NCBI GenBank assembly: GCA_029288615.1
Contig: JARIGV010000003.1
Location: 1,068 to 65,067 of the forward strand
Source: Candidatus Tayloriibacteriota bacterium
GTDB taxonomy: Bacteria > Patescibacteriota > Minisyncoccia > Phycocordibacterales > CAIRYW01
Length of the DNA stretch: 64,000 nucleotides
Reading direction: 5' to 3'
A model generated the notes under the pieces. It made no database searches, had not been told where the DNA came from, and was given only the letters and a program-made list of their open reading frames with translations. The first letter of the stretch is position 1; each line of letters starts with the position of its first letter. Position numbers and translations under genes: made by a program. Positions 24,726-33,706 of this stretch are shown one piece after another.

Positions 24726-24772
24726 GAGTTAAGAAATCACATTACAAGGAGCTTTAAAGCTCCTATTTTTAT

Positions 24773-25330
24773 TTAAAATTTCCCTCCGCAGGTGGTTGGA
24801 TTCCAAAGGCCTGCATTTGCCGCTCTCGCCTCACTCTCCTTCTCTTTAAAATCACTTTGATATTCATACGGCACATCGTATGTATATTCATATGCGTATC
24901 CATTCGCAATCATAAATTCATTGAAAAATATTCCATCGTTGGTGTGAGCATATGCAAGAAGTCGTCCGTATTTATCATACTTTGATTGCGTCGGGTCTGA
25001 TTCAAGAAGAACTTTCTTTCCTTCAAGAATTTTCTTTGCTTCATCGCTCGCTTGTTTACCAAAACATTGCACCGGTTTCCGAGGATCGACAGTCTCTGGC
25101 GTGTTAATACCAATGAGGCGTACTTTTTCTTCTTTTCCATCGACGCTCGCAACGAAAGTATCACCATCAACAACTCGAACCACATCATAATATTCTCCTG
25201 TTGATGTAGCTGTCTGAGACGATGCAACACCTCCTGACGGAAAATATCCAAGTTTCCACAAAATCAAAACGAGCACGCACGCAAAAATCAGAGAAAAAAT
25301 TTTATTCTTTTCCCTAGTCGTTAAGTACAT
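24773..25330 (-). CDS. Secreted thermonuclease (staphylococcal-nuclease/SNase-like)
   Basis: Start trimmed to the ATG at 25330 (the track extension overlaps the upstream gene). TM anchor, then VVRVVDGDTFVA...VRLIGINTPE...GRLLAYAH, the SNase signature. Confidence 0.7.
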   Translation of the reverse strand: MYLTTREKNKIFSLIFACVLVLILWKLGYFPSGGVASSQTATSTGEYYDVVRVVDGDTFVASVDGKEEKVRLIGINTPETVDPRKPVQCFGKQASDEAKKILEGKKVLLESDPTQSKYDKYGRLLAYAHTNDGIFFNEFMIANGYAYEYTYDVPYEYQSDFKEKESEARAANAGLWNPTTCGGKF

Positions 25331-26150
25331 ACAAATCCTGATATCCACCTTCTCCGACAAACTTTGCTTTTCCAGAAATGATCGCTTCAAAAGGTTTACA
25401 TGCAAAACATCCGCCGCGAGGACATTCAAAAACTCCAAGCTCTCTCGCCTCTTTTACTTTTTTTGCAGTCTCAAGGACTCGTCGTCTCGATTCATTTTCG
25501 TCAGGAAGTTGTACATCTTTTGGAGTATCGTCGCGATCGAGATACCAATAGCTCGCTCCAGAAATTTTTCTTTTCTGAAGTTCTTTTGCGAGAAGAAGAT
25601 AGATTGGAAGCTGGAGAGAATCCTCACTTTCATCGTGTCGTCCAGTTTTAAAATCAAGAATTTTGACACTATCATCTTCTGGCACATATTCGAGCCAGTC
25701 GATCTTACCGCAAAGAATAATGTTGTCGTCAGAGGAAATGAAAAAATTCGGCGGCATCCCATTTGCTGATTCTTTAAGCTTCACAGCCTTATTGAGAAGT
25801 GGTCCAGGATGCCTAGCGACTCGTTCGATCATTTCTTTCGCTCTTTTCTTATACTCTGCTTCTTCTTCTGGATTTTTAAATCCACCGCGCACACCAGTCA
25901 CCTTTTGCCATGCAACTTCAAGGTCCGCTAAAAGATCGCGATGAAAGCGCTCTTCCGCCTTAAAATTTCCAAGACCTTCCACCACCTCGTGCACAGCAAG
26001 TCCCAAAGAAAGCTGTGGCGTCACGATATTTATTTTTCGTCTTGACTTCGGATCTTTATAGATATTCTTAAGAAAATACGCGCGGGGGCATTTCAGAAAA
26101 TCTCCCATTGAGGAGTGAGACACCCATACCGCGCTGTATTTATCTTGCAT
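25314..26150 (-). CDS. PD-(D/E)xK nuclease-superfamily protein with 4 Cys (Cas4/AddB-nuclease-like Fe-S arrangement)
   Basis: N-terminal Cys (CPRAYF) plus a C-terminal CPRGGCFACK triad. Core motifs ...GKIDWLEY... and ...ILDFKTG... (D / E..K) fit the RecB-like nuclease fold. Confidence 0.55.
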   Translation of the reverse strand: MQDKYSAVWVSHSSMGDFLKCPRAYFLKNIYKDPKSRRKINIVTPQLSLGLAVHEVVEGLGNFKAEERFHRDLLADLEVAWQKVTGVRGGFKNPEEEAEYKKRAKEMIERVARHPGPLLNKAVKLKESANGMPPNFFISSDDNIILCGKIDWLEYVPEDDSVKILDFKTGRHDESEDSLQLPIYLLLAKELQKRKISGASYWYLDRDDTPKDVQLPDENESRRRVLETAKKVKEARELGVFECPRGGCFACKPFEAIISGKAKFVGEGGYQDLYVLND

Positions 26151-26172: not shown

Positions 26173-26901
26173 TTATTTAAGTGTAAATGTTACACCACCA
26201 CTTGTCGCACCCGAAGCGTTTGTCACACTCACAATATATGTGCCGCGCTCTACAGGAATCGAGATAGGACCTGTCGTAATATATGAAGGAATCGTGAGAG
26301 AAATTGTTGTGCCGCCATTTGTAGATGCAACACCAGCTATCTGACCCTTAGCACCAAAATACACATTCACAGTGTTGTTATTTGCACTGAAGCCTGTGCC
26401 ATGGATCGTGATCGTGTCACCAATAGAAGCAGATGTTGGAGAAATCGATGAAAGAGTTACAGAGGATGATACAGATCCGCTCACACTTGCATTTGTACCA
26501 GCAGACGCAGAACCACTTGAAGTTTGTGCAGACCCAGTCACAGTTGTTTTTACAGTAGCAGAACCTGGAGCAGTATTTATTGATCCACCATTTGCAGATG
26601 TTCCGTAGTTTATGCTTGCAGAAGTACCATTTGTACCAAGATGAACTCCTCCTACGTCAATTGAGGCCGAATTACCGTCAGATGAAACCGCTGTGTTTCC
26701 TGATACAACCTGACTTCCTTGATCGTCTCCATTTTGCTGTTCATTTCCTTGAGCTGTAACTTCAGTATTCGCATTTACATCTGTTTTAGCTGTCCCACCA
26801 AAAGCTCCGCTTTTAACAGCTACATATGTAGCACCTCCTCCAAGCGCGAGCGCTACAAGCACAGCAATGAGAATTCCGATAAAACCTTGATTCTTTTTCA
26901 T
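26173..26901 (-). CDS. Secreted Ser/Thr/Gly-rich surface protein with C-terminal IPT/TIG-like Ig domain
   Basis: Signal/TM anchor, low-complexity S/T/G/N linker, C-terminal ISPTSASIGDTITIHGTGF...VNVYFG...IVSVTN. Confidence 0.5.
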   Translation of the reverse strand: MKKNQGFIGILIAVLVALALGGGATYVAVKSGAFGGTAKTDVNANTEVTAQGNEQQNGDDQGSQVVSGNTAVSSDGNSASIDVGGVHLGTNGTSASINYGTSANGGSINTAPGSATVKTTVTGSAQTSSGSASAGTNASVSGSVSSSVTLSSISPTSASIGDTITIHGTGFSANNNTVNVYFGAKGQIAGVASTNGGTTISLTIPSYITTGPISIPVERGTYIVSVTNASGATSGGVTFTLK

Positions 26902-26972: not shown

Positions 26973-27224
26973 ATGCTTATGAACATCATCGTATATACAA
27001 AAACAAACTGTCCTTGGGCAAAACAAGTAATAGATTTTCTTAATGATAAGAAAATACCATTTGAAGAGCGCGACATTTACAAGAACCCTGATTGGAAAAA
27101 AGAAGTAGAAGAAAAAACCGGCCAATCTAAATCACCAACTCTCGACATCGACGGACATTTTCTTCCCGATTCAGATGCAAAACAAGTAGAAAGTTACCTC
27201 AAAGAAAAAGGAGTATTGAACTAA
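26973..27224 (+). CDS. Glutaredoxin-like protein (CPWA active site)
   Basis: 83 aa; VYTKTNCPWAKQV at the N-terminus with thioredoxin-fold spacing. Confidence 0.6.
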   Translation: MLMNIIVYTKTNCPWAKQVIDFLNDKKIPFEERDIYKNPDWKKEVEEKTGQSKSPTLDIDGHFLPDSDAKQVESYLKEKGVLN

Positions 27225-27667
27225 AGCACAACCGCCGTCTTTGATCTTGTAATCTTCGGGATTTTCTCTACCGGGATAATTCTCACCTGCACAGATTCTT
27301 TTCCTTCCATATATGCTTTCGCGAGCCTATGTACCCCATCAAGGAGTCTGAATTTTCCGTTATGCTCTACCGCATCTAGCGGATACGAAAGATCAGCATT
27401 TTTGATCATTTCGAAGTGAAGCGGATTAAGCTCAGGTTTTTCAATAAGCTCTCTTGGGCTCAGATTGAAATCATCAGTTCCAGTGATATCCCAAAACGGC
27501 TCATCCATGTGCCACATGAGATCTGATATACGGATCAAAATAACAGGCGCTTCAACTTTCCATACGTCACGGGCATCCCATTCGAAGCCAATATTAAGAT
27601 GTGCTGGTATGTCTTTAGAGATTCTCTTCATACTTTCGGGGACGAAAAAATATGAATTACCTGACAA
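27221..27667 (-). CDS. ParB/Srx-like nuclease-domain protein
   Basis: ...FRLLDGVHRLAKAYMEG... corresponds to the ParB N-terminal-domain GxxHR-type motif. The TTG start abuts the stop of the upstream helicase gene. Confidence 0.5.
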   Translation of the reverse strand: MSGNSYFFVPESMKRISKDIPAHLNIGFEWDARDVWKVEAPVILIRISDLMWHMDEPFWDITGTDDFNLSPRELIEKPELNPLHFEMIKNADLSYPLDAVEHNGKFRLLDGVHRLAKAYMEGKESVQVRIIPVEKIPKITRSKTAVVL

Positions 27668-29320
27668 TTAAAGAAAGAGTTTTGCAAGTCTTATTTCAAA
27701 GAATGAAAAATTCGGACCAAGTATTGTTTTTACAGGTGAAAGTCTTCCTTCTTTATCTTTTGCTAAAGATTTTTTCCATGCTTCCGAGATTTTCTTAAAG
27801 CGAGTCGGTGGCAAATAAATATTCTTAAGGTAGAGAATGTCTATTTTTTCTCCTTCTTCAGTAAGCTTTTCAATATGTGAAAGCACTGTTTCTTTTGTAA
27901 GACCTCTCTCTTCAGCAATTTTCTCAAGTGATTTTTTCTCTTCGATGAGCTTCCATGTCTTATGATGTGTCGGCACTTCTTTTTCCTTTTTCACTTTCCC
28001 TAAAGAATTTTTAGAGACAAATTCTTCCTGCATTTTATCTATTTCTTTCTTTCCAGTTTCTTCAAGCCAACTTTCTGATTTCCCCGATTCTTTTCTAAAT
28101 GTTCGGTCCATGTCATGCGCTTCAGGATGGACAAGAAGAGCTGTCTTATTAAAACCCTTGAGTGAAAGCCCTTCAAGACGTCTCACACGTGAAAGCGCCA
28201 CATATCCCATGCCTGGTGTAAAAGAGCGAGAGAGGTCAATCCGTGCCGCATCAAGGCTCATTCCTTGGCTTTTGTGTATTGTAATTGCCCACGCCAAACG
28301 AAGCGGAATCTGTCTTATTTCCGCTCGGATTTTTCCATCTTCTTCAATTCTCCAGCTTTCTGGCACAACCGTAATTTTTCGAGAGTCTAAAGTTTTTACG
28401 ATTGGATTTCCGATATCATCAAAATCTACCACCTCACCAAGTGTTCCGTTCGAATACCCCTTATCAAAAGAATTTTTAACAAACATCACTTTCGCTCCAT
28501 ATTTAAGGAAAAGTCTTTCCGGTGCGAGACAGCTTTTTATAAGAGCCTCAACGAGTCGTGCATTCCCTTTTCTATCCATTTCATACACTTTTTCTCTGCC
28601 TCCAATTTTCGAAAGCTCTGTTTCGTTGAGTTCATCGACATTTATATTGTGTGTCGAAAGTTCTGTTGCAAAAGGTACAGCAAGCTCTTTTCCAACTCGC
28701 TCTTTAAGATGCGAAATAATTTCTTCAGTTACAGAATTTTCACGGATCGCATTAAGAACAGAAAGAAACACCGCATCATCTTGTCGATGAGATTCAGTAA
28801 GATAACAAATTCTAAAATTCATATCCTTCCAGATCTTTGATCTGTATGCGAAATGTCCTTCAGTTTCTCCCGGACGTGAGATCGGCGGGAGCTGGAAGAA
28901 ATCTCCACAGAGTACCACCTGAAGTCCGCCGAAAGGTTTATCGTTTCTTTTGAAGAATTTGCAAAGAGTGTCGAGAAGATCGAAACGAAAATGATGAAGC
29001 ATCGAGATCTCATCAATAATAAGCACTCTCGCCTCTTCATATCTTTTCCAAAGATGTTTTTTTGTCTCAAGATCATCGAGATCTCGTTCTGAAAGCGAGT
29101 CTTTGATGCCAAGCCCGCTCCATGCATGAATCGTCACGCCGCCAAGATGCGTCGCAGCAATCCCCGTCGATGCAGTCACCGCAACAGGAATTCCTTTTTC
29201 TTCCAAGTACGAAATATAAGCTCGAAGTGTGTGCGTCTTACCGCTTCCCGCCGCTCCTGTAAGAAAAACATTCTTTCCAGTCTTTAAAATTGTTAGTGCA
29301 TCAGCGCTTGTCATTGGCAA
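27668..29320 (-). CDS. PIF1-family SF1B DNA helicase with C-terminal helix-turn-helix extension
   Basis: Walker A GAAGSGKTH, LIIDEISML, Pif1 signature GDFFQLPPI, TIHKSQG, ALSRV; C-terminal about 120 aa (helicase-associated HTH-like). 550 aa. Confidence 0.75.
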   Translation of the reverse strand: MPMTSADALTILKTGKNVFLTGAAGSGKTHTLRAYISYLEEKGIPVAVTASTGIAATHLGGVTIHAWSGLGIKDSLSERDLDDLETKKHLWKRYEEARVLIIDEISMLHHFRFDLLDTLCKFFKRNDKPFGGLQVVLCGDFFQLPPISRPGETEGHFAYRSKIWKDMNFRICYLTESHRQDDAVFLSVLNAIRENSVTEEIISHLKERVGKELAVPFATELSTHNINVDELNETELSKIGGREKVYEMDRKGNARLVEALIKSCLAPERLFLKYGAKVMFVKNSFDKGYSNGTLGEVVDFDDIGNPIVKTLDSRKITVVPESWRIEEDGKIRAEIRQIPLRLAWAITIHKSQGMSLDAARIDLSRSFTPGMGYVALSRVRRLEGLSLKGFNKTALLVHPEAHDMDRTFRKESGKSESWLEETGKKEIDKMQEEFVSKNSLGKVKKEKEVPTHHKTWKLIEEKKSLEKIAEERGLTKETVLSHIEKLTEEGEKIDILYLKNIYLPPTRFKKISEAWKKSLAKDKEGRLSPVKTILGPNFSFFEIRLAKLFL

Positions 29321-29417
29321 AAGTATAGCTTTTTTTGTAATAGAAAATCTACTCGGGTTTAATTGACAATGCTCAGAAAAAGTTTAGATTTGTCACAGCG
29401 CAGCCATTTCCATCACT

Positions 29418-29777
29418 ATGTCTGAAATTAACGATCAAACTCCGACCAGCGACCTCATTGATAGATTTGTGAGGAACATCCTCTACGATTGTCATTCAGT
29501 TGAGCGCCGTGTAAATTTCTCCGACGCAAGAAAGGAACTGCAGCGTCGTGGCAGAGTTGTACTGAAAGAAATTGCCGAATATCTCACGAAGACTTTCTCC
29601 GGGAAGGGATTTCGGGAATTTCAGGGATTGGATGAGGACCTCTTCTTGGCCTGGGGCTACCTCCTCTTTGGCATCGCAAGAGACCACAATCTACAGAATC
29701 CTTATCCGAATGTAGTTTTTGGCGATCAGAACATGGGTACGTGGACCCAATTCTGCCTTAGCAACGCAGAAAATTAA
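29418..29777 (+). CDS. Hypothetical protein
   Basis: 119-aa ORF, somewhat elevated GC, no motifs recognised. Confidence 0.3.
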   Translation: MSEINDQTPTSDLIDRFVRNILYDCHSVERRVNFSDARKELQRRGRVVLKEIAEYLTKTFSGKGFREFQGLDEDLFLAWGYLLFGIARDHNLQNPYPNVVFGDQNMGTWTQFCLSNAEN

Positions 29778-29812
29778 TCGCTCATAATGAGCGAATTTTT
29801 TATTTTTGAAAA

Positions 29813-30148
29813 CTAGATTCTTCCAGCGTCATCAACAGGCCGTTTTGGATACTCAGGAATTCCCTCTGCGGCACGAGAAAGCATTGCTTTGTGACTGTCG
29901 AGCTCGGCGCGAAGTGCGTCATTATCTTTCATCAAATTTTTCTTTATTCGATAGTTTTTGAAAACTTCCGGAAGTGACACAAGAATACTAATAAGTACAC
30001 CAGAGACCATTGAGAGAAGAAGGATGAGCGCGAGAGAGCCTTCTACATGCCATGTTATAAATGTAACTGTGATATCGCTAGTATTCTGAAGAGCAAAAAC
30101 GACACTAACTGCACCTAAAAGAAGGCCGAGGACAAGAAATGTGAGCAT
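29813..30148 (-). CDS. LapA/DUF1049-domain membrane protein
   Basis: Two N-terminal TM helices followed by ...NDALRAELDSHKAMLSRA..., typical of LapA-domain proteins. Confidence 0.5.
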   Translation of the reverse strand: MLTFLVLGLLLGAVSVVFALQNTSDITVTFITWHVEGSLALILLLSMVSGVLISILVSLPEVFKNYRIKKNLMKDNDALRAELDSHKAMLSRAAEGIPEYPKRPVDDAGRI

Positions 30149-30153
30149 TTGTA

Positions 30154-30495
30154 TTAATTATTAGACTCTTTTCGGTGTAAACCAAAAAGAGCATTGATAA
30201 AGAAAAGAAGAATCGAGAACAAAAGAGCGTTCCAAAATCCCGACACAGAAAACCCTGGCACAATCATCGCGAGAAGTTCAACGATGAGTGCGTTCACAAC
30301 AAGTGAGAAAAGGCCGAGTGTCAAAATATTGAGCGGAAGCGTCAACAAGAATATGAGCGGCTTTATGAAGGCATTCACAAGCCCAAGAACCACAGCAAGC
30401 ACAAGTGCGCCGATAATTGTCACCGAAACTCCCGGTATCAAATACGCTGCGACTCCGATAGCTATAGCACTTACGATCCAATGCTCGATTTTCAT
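30154..30495 (-). CDS. Phage-holin-family-4 (YvlD-like) membrane protein
   Basis: 113 aa, three hydrophobic helices ...GALVLAVVLGLVNAFIKPLIFLLTLPLNILTLGLFSLVVNALIVELLA..., characteristic of this family. Confidence 0.55.
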   Translation of the reverse strand: MKIEHWIVSAIAIGVAAYLIPGVSVTIIGALVLAVVLGLVNAFIKPLIFLLTLPLNILTLGLFSLVVNALIVELLAMIVPGFSVSGFWNALLFSILLFFINALFGLHRKESNN

Positions 30496-30548
30496 AATAC
30501 ATGTATAATATCACATACATATAGTGGCAAAATAAAGATATAAACAGT

Positions 30549-31148
30549 ATGAACGCTCTCGTCCTCATCATTCAAAAATACCGATATCTTGCCCTCTTCC
30601 CACTCGCAGCTTTCGAAGGCCCAATTATTTCTTTGGTCGTGGGTTTTCTTATTCATTCTGGATATCTCGCAATTCTTCCTTCATATGCAATGCTCGTTTT
30701 GGGCGATATCATTCCCGATACTATCTATTATTATGTCGGCCGCTTCGGTGAAGAAAAAAATCTTATTTCAAAATACGCATCCAAAGAAGGTTTTATCGCG
30801 AACAACTTTCCACTTGTAGAAAAACTCTGGGAAAAACATGGATTTAAAACAATGTTTCTTTCAAAGATTGCATACGGCCTCTCAACAATTTTCCTCGTAA
30901 GCGCAGGCCTTGTAAAAATGCCGCTTAAAAGATTTCTTACATACACAATCCCGATCACACTTTTTCAATACGGCGTTATCATGACCATTGGATATTACCT
31001 CGGCCAGTCTTACGAAGCAGCTTCAAAATATATTGAGTACACAGGATATTTTGCAGCAGGTATTGTTGTAATCCTTATCGTTGTTTATATAATCCTCTCA
31101 AAATACGCCCGTAAGAAACTCATAGAGGAAGTAAAAGAAGATAAATAG
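30549..31148 (+). CDS. DedA/VTT-family membrane protein
   Basis: N-terminal motif ...FPLAAFEGPIISLVVGFLIHSGYL... matches the DedA family; 199 aa. Confidence 0.6.
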   Translation: MNALVLIIQKYRYLALFPLAAFEGPIISLVVGFLIHSGYLAILPSYAMLVLGDIIPDTIYYYVGRFGEEKNLISKYASKEGFIANNFPLVEKLWEKHGFKTMFLSKIAYGLSTIFLVSAGLVKMPLKRFLTYTIPITLFQYGVIMTIGYYLGQSYEAASKYIEYTGYFAAGIVVILIVVYIILSKYARKKLIEEVKEDK

Positions 31149-31152
31149 CCGC

Positions 31153-32334
31153 ATGAAAATAGCATATTTTTCCGACAATTTTTATCCAGAACTTTCAGGA
31201 ATTTCCGATTCAATTATCACAACGGGTATAGAGCTTTCAAAACGCGGACACGAGATACATTTTTTTGCACCTTCCTACAGCGAAAAAAATTATCACTCTT
31301 CAGGACTTTCAGATCAGAGCGAACCACACCTCGGTGAAAATATTTTTATTCATCGTCTTCCTTCAATTCCCTTTCCAGCACCCACAGGCGCAGGCCGCCT
31401 CGCTATACCAGATATTTTTCGAGGATTTGATGTAGAGAAATTTGATATCGTTCATAGTCAAAGCATTTTTGGATGCGGCCTTGATGCACTTATCACATCT
31501 AAAATTTCAAAGACTCCTTTCGTTGGTACAAATCACACACTCATTGAAGCATTTGTTCCAAAATACACCATCGTTCAAAACACGATGCGAAGTTTTGAGA
31601 CATGGTATTACAATCACACAAACTTCGTCACGACACCTTCAGAATTTCTCATAGAAGAAATGCAAAAAAATGGACTTATCGTGAAAGCGAAACCTCTTTC
31701 AAACCCTATCGCTTCTGAATTCTTTCACGCACCCGCTTCAAAAGAAGATCTCAAGAAAAAACTTGGACTTCGCAAGTTTTCCATTCTCTACGCCGGTCGC
31801 ATTTCGCCTGAGAAAAACATCATGGATCTTTTTAATGCTTTTGTGATTTTTGCAAAAGAAAATACTGAAGCTGAACTCATTCTCGCAGGAAACGGAATAC
31901 TACTTCCCTCACTTAAACAAAAAACAAAAGAATTAGGGCTCGAAAATAAAATTCGATTTACCGGACTTTTCCAAGGGGAGAATAAAAAAACTCTCTATGA
32001 ATATTTTCACGCTTCTGATGTCTTTGTCATGCCCTCAACCTCCGAAACGCAAAGCATGGGAGTAATTCAAGCTATGGCTTCAGCCCTCCCTGTCATAGTT
32101 GCAAACTCAGGCCCGCTCCCTACCCTTGTCGCCGAAGATCGTGGCCTTGTATGTGAACCAAATAATCCAGCCAGTCTCGCAGTGACACTCAAAAATATAT
32201 CTGAAGATAAAACACTTCAAGAAAAATTCTCGGTGAATGGCAAAAAATATGCAGAAGAATATTCTGTTTCCAAAATCGCAGATGAATGGGAAAAAATTTA
32301 TAAGGAAACAATAGAAAAATATGCACGAGCCTAA
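31153..32334 (+). CDS. Glycosyltransferase family 4 (GT-B)
   Basis: 393 aa, C-terminal GT4 motifs (...GRISPEKNI... EGFGLV-like ...SETQSMGVIQAMASALPVI...). Confidence 0.75.
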   Translation: MKIAYFSDNFYPELSGISDSIITTGIELSKRGHEIHFFAPSYSEKNYHSSGLSDQSEPHLGENIFIHRLPSIPFPAPTGAGRLAIPDIFRGFDVEKFDIVHSQSIFGCGLDALITSKISKTPFVGTNHTLIEAFVPKYTIVQNTMRSFETWYYNHTNFVTTPSEFLIEEMQKNGLIVKAKPLSNPIASEFFHAPASKEDLKKKLGLRKFSILYAGRISPEKNIMDLFNAFVIFAKENTEAELILAGNGILLPSLKQKTKELGLENKIRFTGLFQGENKKTLYEYFHASDVFVMPSTSETQSMGVIQAMASALPVIVANSGPLPTLVAEDRGLVCEPNNPASLAVTLKNISEDKTLQEKFSVNGKKYAEEYSVSKIADEWEKIYKETIEKYARA

Positions 32335-33043
32335 GATAAGTCTTATCATCTGCGCTTACAACGAAGAGAAATATATTGGAAGCTGTTTGGAGCATGTTCA
32401 AAAAAACGCTCATGATAATTTTTTTGAAATAATCGTTGTTGATAATGCATCAACAGATACAACAAAAGAAATCGCTTCAAGGTTTCATAATGTACGAGTA
32501 GTGGAAGAAATACAAAAGGGTCTTACAAGAGCACGCCAACGTGGTTTTCTTGAAGCAAAAGGAGATGTTTTGGCATATATTGATGCAGATACACAAATGC
32601 CTACTGGCTGGTACGAGAGAGTTTCATATGAATTTAAAGAAAATCCTAAACTTGCTGCTCTTTCAGGCCCTGCACTCTACTACGATATTCCTGCATGGCA
32701 GAGATTCCTTGTTTTGGTTTACTGGTATCTTTTTGGAATGCCTGTCTATTTTGTCGTTGGTTTTATGATCATGGGCTCGAATTTTGCCATTCGAAAAGAT
32801 GTACTACAAAAGATGAATGGTTTTGATACAAAAATTGAATTTTATGGAGAAGATACAAACGTCGCGAGACGTGCGAGCAAATTTGGTAAAGTAAAATTCA
32901 CACCAAAACTTAAAATGTACTTTTCTGGTCGCAGACTTCACAATCAAGGACTCTTAAATACCGGCTACGAATATGTAAAAAATTTCCTCTCCGAAGCATT
33001 TCTTAAAAAACCTGTGACTACACATTATAAAGATTTCAGATAG
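32321..33043 (+). CDS. Glycosyltransferase family 2 (GT-A)
   Basis: ISLIICAYNEEKYI...VVDNASTDTT...AYIDADT (DXD). Overlaps the GT4 gene by 14 nt. Confidence 0.75.
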   Translation: MHEPKISLIICAYNEEKYIGSCLEHVQKNAHDNFFEIIVVDNASTDTTKEIASRFHNVRVVEEIQKGLTRARQRGFLEAKGDVLAYIDADTQMPTGWYERVSYEFKENPKLAALSGPALYYDIPAWQRFLVLVYWYLFGMPVYFVVGFMIMGSNFAIRKDVLQKMNGFDTKIEFYGEDTNVARRASKFGKVKFTPKLKMYFSGRRLHNQGLLNTGYEYVKNFLSEAFLKKPVTTHYKDFR

Positions 33044-33052
33044 AATAATGTT

Positions 33053-33706
33053 ATGAAATCCGCGGCCATTAGATGCAAAGACTGCTTCAGCAATAAGAGA
33101 TTTTTGATCTCGTTTATTTCGGGCATTGTCATGCTTGTTGTAAGCTGCGTCATCAACTATTACGCTGGCACATACGCAGCCGAGAGAGCAAGTAACTACG
33201 TCAACGACATAGTTCTCTCCAATATTCCTGTCTTTGATGTTGATGCGGTTTTTGTATTCGGCCCATTTGTACTGTGGCTTATTGTTGCAGTGCTCTGTCT
33301 TCACGAACCTAAACGCATTCCATTCGTTCTCAAAAGCATCGCACTCTTTGTGGTCATTCGTTCGATCTTTATCACCCTCACTCATATTGGACCATTTCCA
33401 GACCACGACATTCTTGATCGAGGACAAACTCTGGTAAAAGATTTTACATTTGGAGCGGATCTTTTCTTTTCAGCTCACACAGGACTTCCTTACCTTATGG
33501 CTCTTGTATTTTGGGACAACACATTTCTCCGCCGATTTTTCACCATAACCGCAGTCTTCTTTGGTGTCATAGTTCTCATGGGACATCTTCACTACACAAT
33601 TGATGTTCTCTCAGCGTTCTTTATTACATACACAATTTACCACCTCGCGACGATCTTCTTCAAAAAAGACAAAACCCTCTTTGATGAGGGCTTGCCGCTT
33701 CCTTAA
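33053..33706 (+). CDS. PAP2-like (phosphatidic acid phosphatase type 2 superfamily-like) membrane protein (tentative)
   Basis: 5-6 TM; candidate PAP2 C-terminal motifs FSAHTG and GHLHYTIDVLSA. Confidence 0.35.
   Translation: MKSAAIRCKDCFSNKRFLISFISGIVMLVVSCVINYYAGTYAAERASNYVNDIVLSNIPVFDVDAVFVFGPFVLWLIVAVLCLHEPKRIPFVLKSIALFVVIRSIFITLTHIGPFPDHDILDRGQTLVKDFTFGADLFFSAHTGLPYLMALVFWDNTFLRRFFTITAVFFGVIVLMGHLHYTIDVLSAFFITYTIYHLATIFFKKDKTLFDEGLPLP

Follow-up and report, generated by a model that had tools for sequence, protein, structure and literature searches.

A Pif1-family helicase gene and an orphan ParB/Srx-fold gene are probably chance neighbours in a genome of Candidatus Tayloriibacteriota

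On the minus strand of a 64,000-nucleotide (nt) stretch of a Candidatus Tayloriibacteriota bacterium (GenBank assembly GCA_029288615.1, contig JARIGV010000003.1, positions 1,068 to 65,067; the whole stretch is termed the window below), the gene of a Pif1-family DNA helicase is followed at once by the gene of a small protein bearing a motif typical of the ParB/Srx superfamily. Does this arrangement reflect a dedicated pair of proteins working together, or did two unrelated genes come to lie side by side? The original prediction, made from the letters of the window, took the two genes for a translationally coupled module targeting nucleic acids. Our analysis points the other way. The helicase and the ParB-like gene are neighbours in this genome only, and we thus regard them as functionally independent genes that probably became neighbours by chance.

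To begin with the helicase side, we compared the loci of 13 helicase lineages, seven of which are closely related to the window (60-66% identical in the helicase) and six of which are distant (~50% identical). The ParB-like gene was adjacent to the helicase gene in none of them (0/7 and 0/6, respectively), so that neither the pairing nor the abutment of stop and start codons is conserved in any relative. Instead, the gene directly downstream of the helicase in five of the seven close relatives (L004/5, L021/22, L109/110, L111 and L112) encodes a nuclease of the PDDEXK_1 family, separated from the helicase by 15-61 nt. A PLDc_2 (PLD-family) gene occupies this position in L019/20, and a glutaredoxin gene converges directly on the helicase in L018. 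In L109, the helicase is followed by the PDDEXK nuclease, a hypothetical protein of 152 amino acids (aa) and a staphylococcal-nuclease-like (SNase) gene, matching the PDDEXK (25314-26150) and SNase (24773-25438) genes of the window. MsrA and MsrB genes were found upstream of the helicase in L018 and L015, directly adjacent to it in the former. The L004/5 locus does contain a ParB-like orthologue, which lies ~2 kb downstream of the helicase, after the PDDEXK nuclease, a DoxX gene and a hypothetical gene. The profile hidden Markov model (HMM) of the ParB-like family found no match in the loci of the six distant relatives, where the helicase is neighboured by the genes of IMPDH, VanY, an HI0933-like flavoprotein, MacB/FtsX, a CsoR-type repressor, a tRNA synthetase and a pseudouridine synthase.

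The survey from the side of the small protein gave a consistent picture. Among the 80 metagenomic loci that carry the closest members of the ParB-like family (35-52% identity; L023-L102), 41 of which are at least 6 kb long, a Pif1-like helicase was detected in a single locus, L033, where it is 32% identical, lies on the opposite strand and stands ~4 kb away. One such helicase in 80 loci is about the level expected by chance. The genes upstream of the ParB-like members encode SecA (three loci), Sua5 and HAD (two loci each), RNase J, MurB, NUDIX, a glycosyltransferase and others, and those downstream encode NUDIX, a transposase, deformylase, FolD, APH, Fic and others. The maximal open reading frame (ORF) of the ParB-like gene begins within 30 nt of an upstream ORF on the same strand in 31 of 69 loci, and close packing is therefore a trait of the family and of dense genomes of the candidate phyla radiation (CPR), rather than one specific to the helicase. 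A domain scan of 61 longer members of the family revealed no fusion to a helicase. The fusion partners found included an MGMT-type DNA-binding domain, ATP-grasp, peptidase S51, SDR, arginase, GNAT, SET, ASCH, histidine phosphatase (His_Phos), HAD, NUDIX and pyrophosphatase (PPase). The SET, NUDIX and His_Phos fusions were compared with the SET, NUDIX and His_Phos genes upstream of the helicase in L111 and L112, since orthology would have hinted at a link between the two neighbourhoods; this was rejected, as the identity is only 26-28%.

Such varied neighbours and fusions present the pattern of a promiscuous, 'hitch-hiking' domain. Two further settings of the family are worth recording. In Candidatus Magasanikbacteria (L008-L011; 1392-7354), a member 50% identical to the window protein overlaps the genes of a 298-aa hypothetical protein and an APH/choline-kinase-family protein by 4 and 14 nt, and beside this block of three genes stand a large serine recombinase and an HTH_3 regulator; the block may thus represent an integrated element. 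In Kribbella, the ParB-like gene is flanked by a methyltransferase and a LuxR-type regulator.

How tightly the two genes of the window are joined depends on their start codons. Taking the first ATG, GTG or TTG after a stop as the start yields a helicase ORF of 550 codons (27668..29320, minus strand), which contains GDFFQLPPI, and a small ORF of 148 codons (27221..27667, minus strand), which contains LLDGVHRLAKA; both are present as originally described. The helicase ORF opens at TTG 29320, two codons upstream of ATG 29314. The latter is most probably the genuine start of the helicase, since the deposited protein P0270, identical to it, comprises 548 aa, and the gene thus spans 27668..29314. 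The small ORF runs back to the helicase stop because both ORFs share one frame under the same rule, and an in-frame TTG (27667-27665) stands directly 3' of the helicase TAA (27670-27668). Several lines of evidence favour a start further downstream. An identical copy of the small protein in a collection derived from NCBI is of 136 aa and begins with MKRISKD, corresponding to ATG 27631. In an all-against-library search, the matches start at residue 13 of the small ORF or later in all but 3 of the 150 proteins listed, the three exceptions beginning at residues 7, 8 and 9. The closest orthologue, that of L004 (55% identical), starts with MKQISKPIPK at an ATG, and an in-frame stop occurs nine codons upstream of this ATG with no ATG, GTG or TTG between the two. 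Altogether, this evidence points to ATG 27631 and not to the TTG as the most probable start, giving a protein of 136 aa (27221..27631, minus strand) and a real intergenic gap of 36 nt (27632-27667). Stop and TTG therefore adjoin in the sequence as had been noticed, but the TTG is most probably not the biological start.

The Shine-Dalgarno sequence could not serve to compare the TTG with the ATG, as the genes of the window show no enrichment against which to judge them: complementarity of -4 kcal/mol or stronger was found at 9% of the starts of the 68 ORFs that encode 100 aa or more in the window, and in 12% of random 17-mers. This suggests that initiation in the organism is independent of Shine-Dalgarno sequences. 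The 36-nt spacer (27632..27667, minus strand) contains no stop codon and continues the frame of both genes, and site prediction gave neither a promoter-like nor a terminator-like element inside it. As the helicase and the ParB-like gene share a strand and no terminator was predicted to separate them, their co-transcription is plausible, and transcripts starting at the helicase promoter may well read through into the ParB-like gene. Hence, of the single transcription and translation unit proposed originally, the transcriptional half is tenable, whereas translational coupling is not with a start 36 nt downstream of the stop. We also note that read-through of the single TAA would in principle yield a fusion of the helicase and the ParB-like protein, given the shared frame and the stop-free spacer (27632-27670).

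The identity of the larger protein leaves little ambiguity. Its sequence identifies it as a Pif1-family helicase of superfamily 1B (SF1B) with a C-terminal helix-turn-helix (HTH) domain of the HTH_40 family, in agreement with the earlier assignment. It matched PF05970 (PIF1) with an E-value of 1.9e-38 and 132.7 bits (gathering cut-off 25.9), PF21530 (Pif1_2B) with 4.2e-6 and, at residues 451-546 in the numbering of the 550-codon ORF, PF14493 (HTH_40) with 1.8e-20 and 73.5 bits (cut-off 27). The best matches in the PDB were yeast Pif1 (1.3e-72), human PIF1 (2e-71) and the Pif1 of Bacteroides, BaPif1 (7e-57), and the NCBIfam models of RecD2 and TraA scored far under their cut-offs. The helicase motifs GAAGSGKT, LIIDEISM, KPFGGLQVVLCGDFFQLPPI, SHRQ, IHKSQG and YVALSRV can be read in the sequence, and Walker A (GAAGSGKT), Walker B (LIIDEISM) and the Pif1 signature between motifs II and III (DLLDTLCKFFKRNDKPFGGLQVVLCGDFFQLPPI) align to yeast Pif1. 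Pif1-family helicases translocate 5' to 3' on single-stranded DNA, driven by ATP. The window protein shares the SF1B motifs, the signature KPFGGLQVVLCGDFFQLPPI and the 2B/SH3 domain with yeast Pif1 and Rrm3, human PIF1 and BaPif1; it differs from them in being encoded by a CPR bacterium, in the gene of a Cas4-type nuclease that usually comes next to it in its clade, and in its HTH_40 winged-helix extension, which falls outside the region matched in the solved chains (query up to ~410).

More than 8000 database proteins belong to this helicase family at E < 1e-30. The top 120 matches are 53-66% identical to the window protein, nearly all 545-593 aa long (range 507-611), and without exception share the PIF1 plus HTH_40 architecture; the named sources among them are Paceibacterota, Parcubacteria, Yonathbacteria, Lloydbacteria and Minisyncoccota. 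The helicase is thus a conserved gene of CPR bacteria rather than an accessory one, and was most likely inherited vertically. We found nothing relevant in the literature on Pif1 helicases in CPR/Patescibacteria.

The small protein is far less conspicuous in sequence databases. No match was found in Pfam, NCBIfam or PADLOC, in the case of Pfam and NCBIfam not even at relaxed thresholds of E <= 10 or E <= 1, and neither PF02195 (ParBc) nor any other curated ParB model matched; weak Pfam hits to Imm21 and a VapB-like family (E 0.14-0.16) were dismissed as noise. Among the PHROG families, phrog_17560, of unknown function, matched residues 83-142 with 6.8e-15. An exhaustive HMMER search nevertheless recovered 611 representatives of 50%-identity clusters at E <= 1e-3, mostly stand-alone proteins of 120-160 aa. 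In an alignment of 118 sequences, G99 and R102 are the sole invariant residues, and D98 and H101 are conserved at 99%, defining the motif LDGxHRL with its GxxR phosphate motif (P-motif). The family profile matched the N-terminal ParB/Srx domain of SbnI with 1.2e-5, profile positions 77-123 aligning with SbnI residues 38-85 in register with IDGVHRF, and also matched sulfiredoxin (Srx) weakly. When the alignment was supplied, AlphaFold2 modelled the small protein with a predicted local distance difference test score (pLDDT) of 87.6 and a predicted template modelling score (pTM) of 0.81, whereas the model from the single sequence (pLDDT 36) was unusable. The GxxR motif is placed at the junction of a strand (93-98) and a helix (100-108) in the former model, and the Foldseek search of this model against the PDB agreed with a ParB/Srx fold. 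Among all Foldseek matches, the best were to short ParB/Srx proteins encoded by jumbo phages and giant viruses (E 1e-7 to 1e-6, TMq 0.56-0.62). Because a confident model, fold matches in the PDB and among viral proteins, and the profile match to SbnI all agree, the ParB/Srx-like call of the original prediction is correct: a ParB/Srx fold is confidently predicted for the small protein, whose membership of the superfamily rests on the fold and the profile-to-PDB evidence. We regard the family as a new, Pfam-less and sporadically distributed member of this known superfamily.

What the fold might do here is suggested by characterized relatives. The GxxR P-motif contacts phosphates, with arginine-to-alanine mutants serving as negative controls for the binding of nucleoside triphosphates (NTPs); Srx, SerK and SbnI employ the fold as an ATP-binding module, and orphan homologues of the fold are widespread and often tied to mobile elements (PMC12704722). 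The invariant GxxR motif, together with closest sequence relatives of the SbnI, SerK and Srx type, suggests that the small protein binds an NTP, probably ATP. With SbnI, SerK and Srx it has the DGxHR/GxxR type of motif in common. Unlike SbnI and SerK, however, it has no C-terminal substrate domain (136 versus ~250 aa); the catalytic cysteine in the GGCHR of sulfiredoxin is replaced by valine in its LDGVHR, no cysteine being conserved at this position across the family; and it carries a conserved segment of its own, FxWD...LxWHLDxPFW. The canonical CTP-dependent DNA clamps ParB, Noc and KorB resemble the window protein in their N-terminal ParB-CTPase fold and in the GxxR motif for phosphates, but the window protein is single-domain and acidic, lacks the HTH, the dimerisation domain and the GERRxR Box II (DGVHR being found instead), and has nothing about it that points to a ParA or parS context. 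The viral ParB/Srx proteins (Pseudomonas phage EL Q2Z106; phrog_17560) are similar in size and provide the best structural matches; they are only 21-28% identical to the window protein and likewise uncharacterised, and the window gene is by contrast cellular, with no prophage genes around it. If so, the protein would act as a small phosphotransfer enzyme or nucleotide switch rather than as a ParB clamp, an inference that forms the weak point of our explanation.

The genes around the pair can now be described. The glutaredoxin gene (26973..27224, plus strand; PF00462 at 1.9e-15), 70% identical to the glutaredoxin of L018, converges with the ParB-like gene, the two stop codons overlapping by 4 nt. 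Further along lies the gene of an IPT/TIG-domain protein rich in serine, threonine and glycine (26173..26901, minus strand; PF01833 at 2e-6), no homologue of which was found in the loci of the relatives. The ParB-like, glutaredoxin and TIG genes thus stand between the helicase and a Cas4/RecB-type PD-(D/E)XK nuclease gene (25314..26150, minus strand; PF12705 at 3.4e-22), which sits 1.5 kb downstream of the helicase and is followed by the SNase-like gene (24773..25438, minus strand; PF00565 at 1.2e-24). The region 24764-25195 is 61% identical to the SNase of L109, and the real start of the SNase gene is probably further downstream, because its mechanical ORF start overlaps the upstream gene. 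The SNase and PDDEXK_1 genes and a BI-1 gene (PF01027), all named originally as neighbours, were confirmed, as was the GC-richer composition around BI-1 (0.475 at 24-25 kb versus ~0.40 elsewhere). Besides these genes, the helicase and the ParB-like gene, our scan of 20-35 kb recovered genes for HlyD-type proteins, an MFS transporter, a LapA-domain protein, a holin_4_2-like membrane protein, a VTT/DedA protein, two glycosyltransferases and MsrB/MsrA. The genes scanned there include none for an integrase, a transposase, a restriction-modification or toxin-antitoxin system, or any recognised defence function. Nor was any tRNA, rRNA or other RNA family detected in the 64 kb by ARAGORN or by Rfam at gathering thresholds, leaving no marker of an integration site.

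The ~4.4 kb between the helicase and MsrB (29400-33700) hold the genes of a 119-aa hypothetical protein (29418-29777; no family match), the LapA-domain, holin_4_2-like and VTT/DedA proteins and the glycosyltransferases GT4 and GT2. Compared with L018 and L015, this envelope-related block suggests that the region was rearranged locally or received an insertion, although it holds no genes of mobile elements. A GC-rich hairpin of 7 bp flanked by T-tracts on both strands (29778-29794) lies between the 119-aa ORF and the LapA-domain gene, which converge on one another, and is likely a bidirectional terminator.

The PD-(D/E)XK nuclease deserves closer attention, as it appears to be the regular companion of the helicase. 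It is 68-78% identical to the nucleases adjoining the helicase in L004/5, L021/22, L109/110, L111 and L112, and its invariant residues include four cysteines (C21, C243, C248 and C251), D151, D166, K168 and QLPIY. An SF1B helicase combined with a RecB-family nuclease bearing four cysteines, D...DxK and QxxxY is likewise found in Dna2, AddB and Cas4 systems, from which the pair of the window differs in being split into two genes, in the cysteine spacing (C-x221-C-x4-C-x2-C, with x4 to x6 among the orthologues) and in a synteny confined to one sub-clade. The helicase and the Fe-S PD-(D/E)XK nuclease would then constitute a split, Dna2/AddB-like helicase-nuclease for the processing or repair of DNA ends. 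Under the reading we favour, the helicase was inherited vertically and usually goes with a nuclease in its clade; a rearrangement of gene order would have parted the two here by putting the orphan ParB/Srx, glutaredoxin and TIG genes between them, and the small gene would be transcribed by read-through across the 36-nt gap, starting at its own ATG without translational coupling.

We now weigh this reading against its rivals. A dedicated, translationally coupled helicase-ParB/Srx module resembling a defence system could draw on the shared strand, the short gap without a predicted terminator, the occurrence of both protein superfamilies in phage and defence contexts, the matches of the small protein to phrog_17560 and to proteins of jumbo phages and giant viruses, and the rearrangement of the region from MsrAB to PDDEXK relative to the relatives. 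The helicase also gave partial PADLOC matches to RecD-like and PDC helicases, but such matches extended to several unrelated systems and covered the generic SF1 core, and the small protein had none. With the adjacency unique to the window (0/13 helicase relatives), a single Pif1-like helicase in 80 ParB-like loci, an abutting TTG that is most probably not the start, flanks in which the scan met no mobile-element or defence genes, and a widely conserved helicase with housekeeping neighbours, neither the two-gene module nor its presumed defence or phage context is supported; co-occurrence had already largely refuted the idea, which we hold to be highly improbable. A looser association is conceivable, in which the ParB/Srx protein acts as a lineage-specific, NTP-gated regulator or loader of a repair cluster made of the helicase, the PD-(D/E)XK nuclease and the SNase, without being strictly adjacent to the helicase. 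The ParB-like orthologues sharing 55% identity do follow orthologous helicases on one strand, at a distance of 36 nt in the window and ~2 kb in L004/5, within or beside the helicase-nuclease cluster, and one family member is fused to the MGMT-type DNA-binding domain. Nonetheless, the equally close L021, L109, L111 and L112 possess the helicase-PDDEXK pair but no ParB-like gene in the 6 kb of flank examined, the contexts and fusions of the family mostly involve small-molecule enzymes and unrelated housekeeping genes, and the family is acidic (median isoelectric point 5.9, 81% under 7), which is atypical of DNA-binding factors. We therefore consider such an accessory role quite unlikely. In a bolder version, the 136-aa protein would represent an undescribed, Pfam-less ParB/Srx branch, a free-standing phosphotransferase or switch dependent on ATP or another NTP and recruited to modulate the split Dna2-like repair cluster in this sub-lineage of Paceibacteria, the branch (611 clusters at 50% identity) being spread over CPR bacteria and actinobacteria as well as jumbo phages and giant viruses; this we rate as very unlikely.

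The small protein might alternatively be a stand-alone nuclease or DNA-nicking enzyme that works independently of the helicase. Some sources name family members 'ParB-like nuclease', pNOB8 ParB-N ('ParB domain protein nuclease') and Osa are among the proteins matched by structure, and the aspartate of DGxHR is nearly invariant. For the window protein, however, 'nuclease' is a label inherited from databases; by sequence it stands closest to two ATP-dependent kinases, SbnI and SerK, and to sulfiredoxin, no DNA-binding domain is present, the fusions are mostly to metabolic enzymes, and the acidic isoelectric point argues weakly against DNA binding, so that we view this alternative as unlikely.

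Several points weigh against the chance-neighbour reading itself. The co-occurrence counts come from a limited sampling of lineages and loci. Two of the eight sampled lineages (the window and L004/5) keep the 55%-identical ParB-like orthologue at most 2.1 kb downstream of the helicase on the same strand, the L004 orthologue being the best database match of the window protein, and this shared position could reflect a lineage-specific functional link beyond inherited gene order; co-transcription would, moreover, still allow co-regulation. The pairing of helicase and nuclease is limited to the clade of at least 60% identity and is absent from the six relatives of ~50%. As for the small protein, its function is a putative one, assigned from fold, motif and distant homology, and some ParB/Srx proteins have been reported as nucleases. 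Nucleotide specificity, in addition, is not predictable from sequence (PMC12704722). With these points taken into account, we still regard the functional independence of the two genes as probable.

If true, the helicase/ParB-like defence module would have been a new two-gene system targeting nucleic acids; the evidence says otherwise, and the idea can be retired. Two modest findings keep their value. The family of the small protein is a sizeable group of single-domain ParB/Srx proteins that is invisible to Pfam and consequently escapes surveys of ParB-CTPases based on PF02195, the model that seeded the published survey (PMC12704722), and is thus a candidate addition to screens for nucleotide binding. 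The recurrent pair of a Pif1 helicase and a Cas4-type Fe-S nuclease in Paceibacteria, on the other hand, may belong to the small set of DNA-repair genes that CPR bacteria retain.

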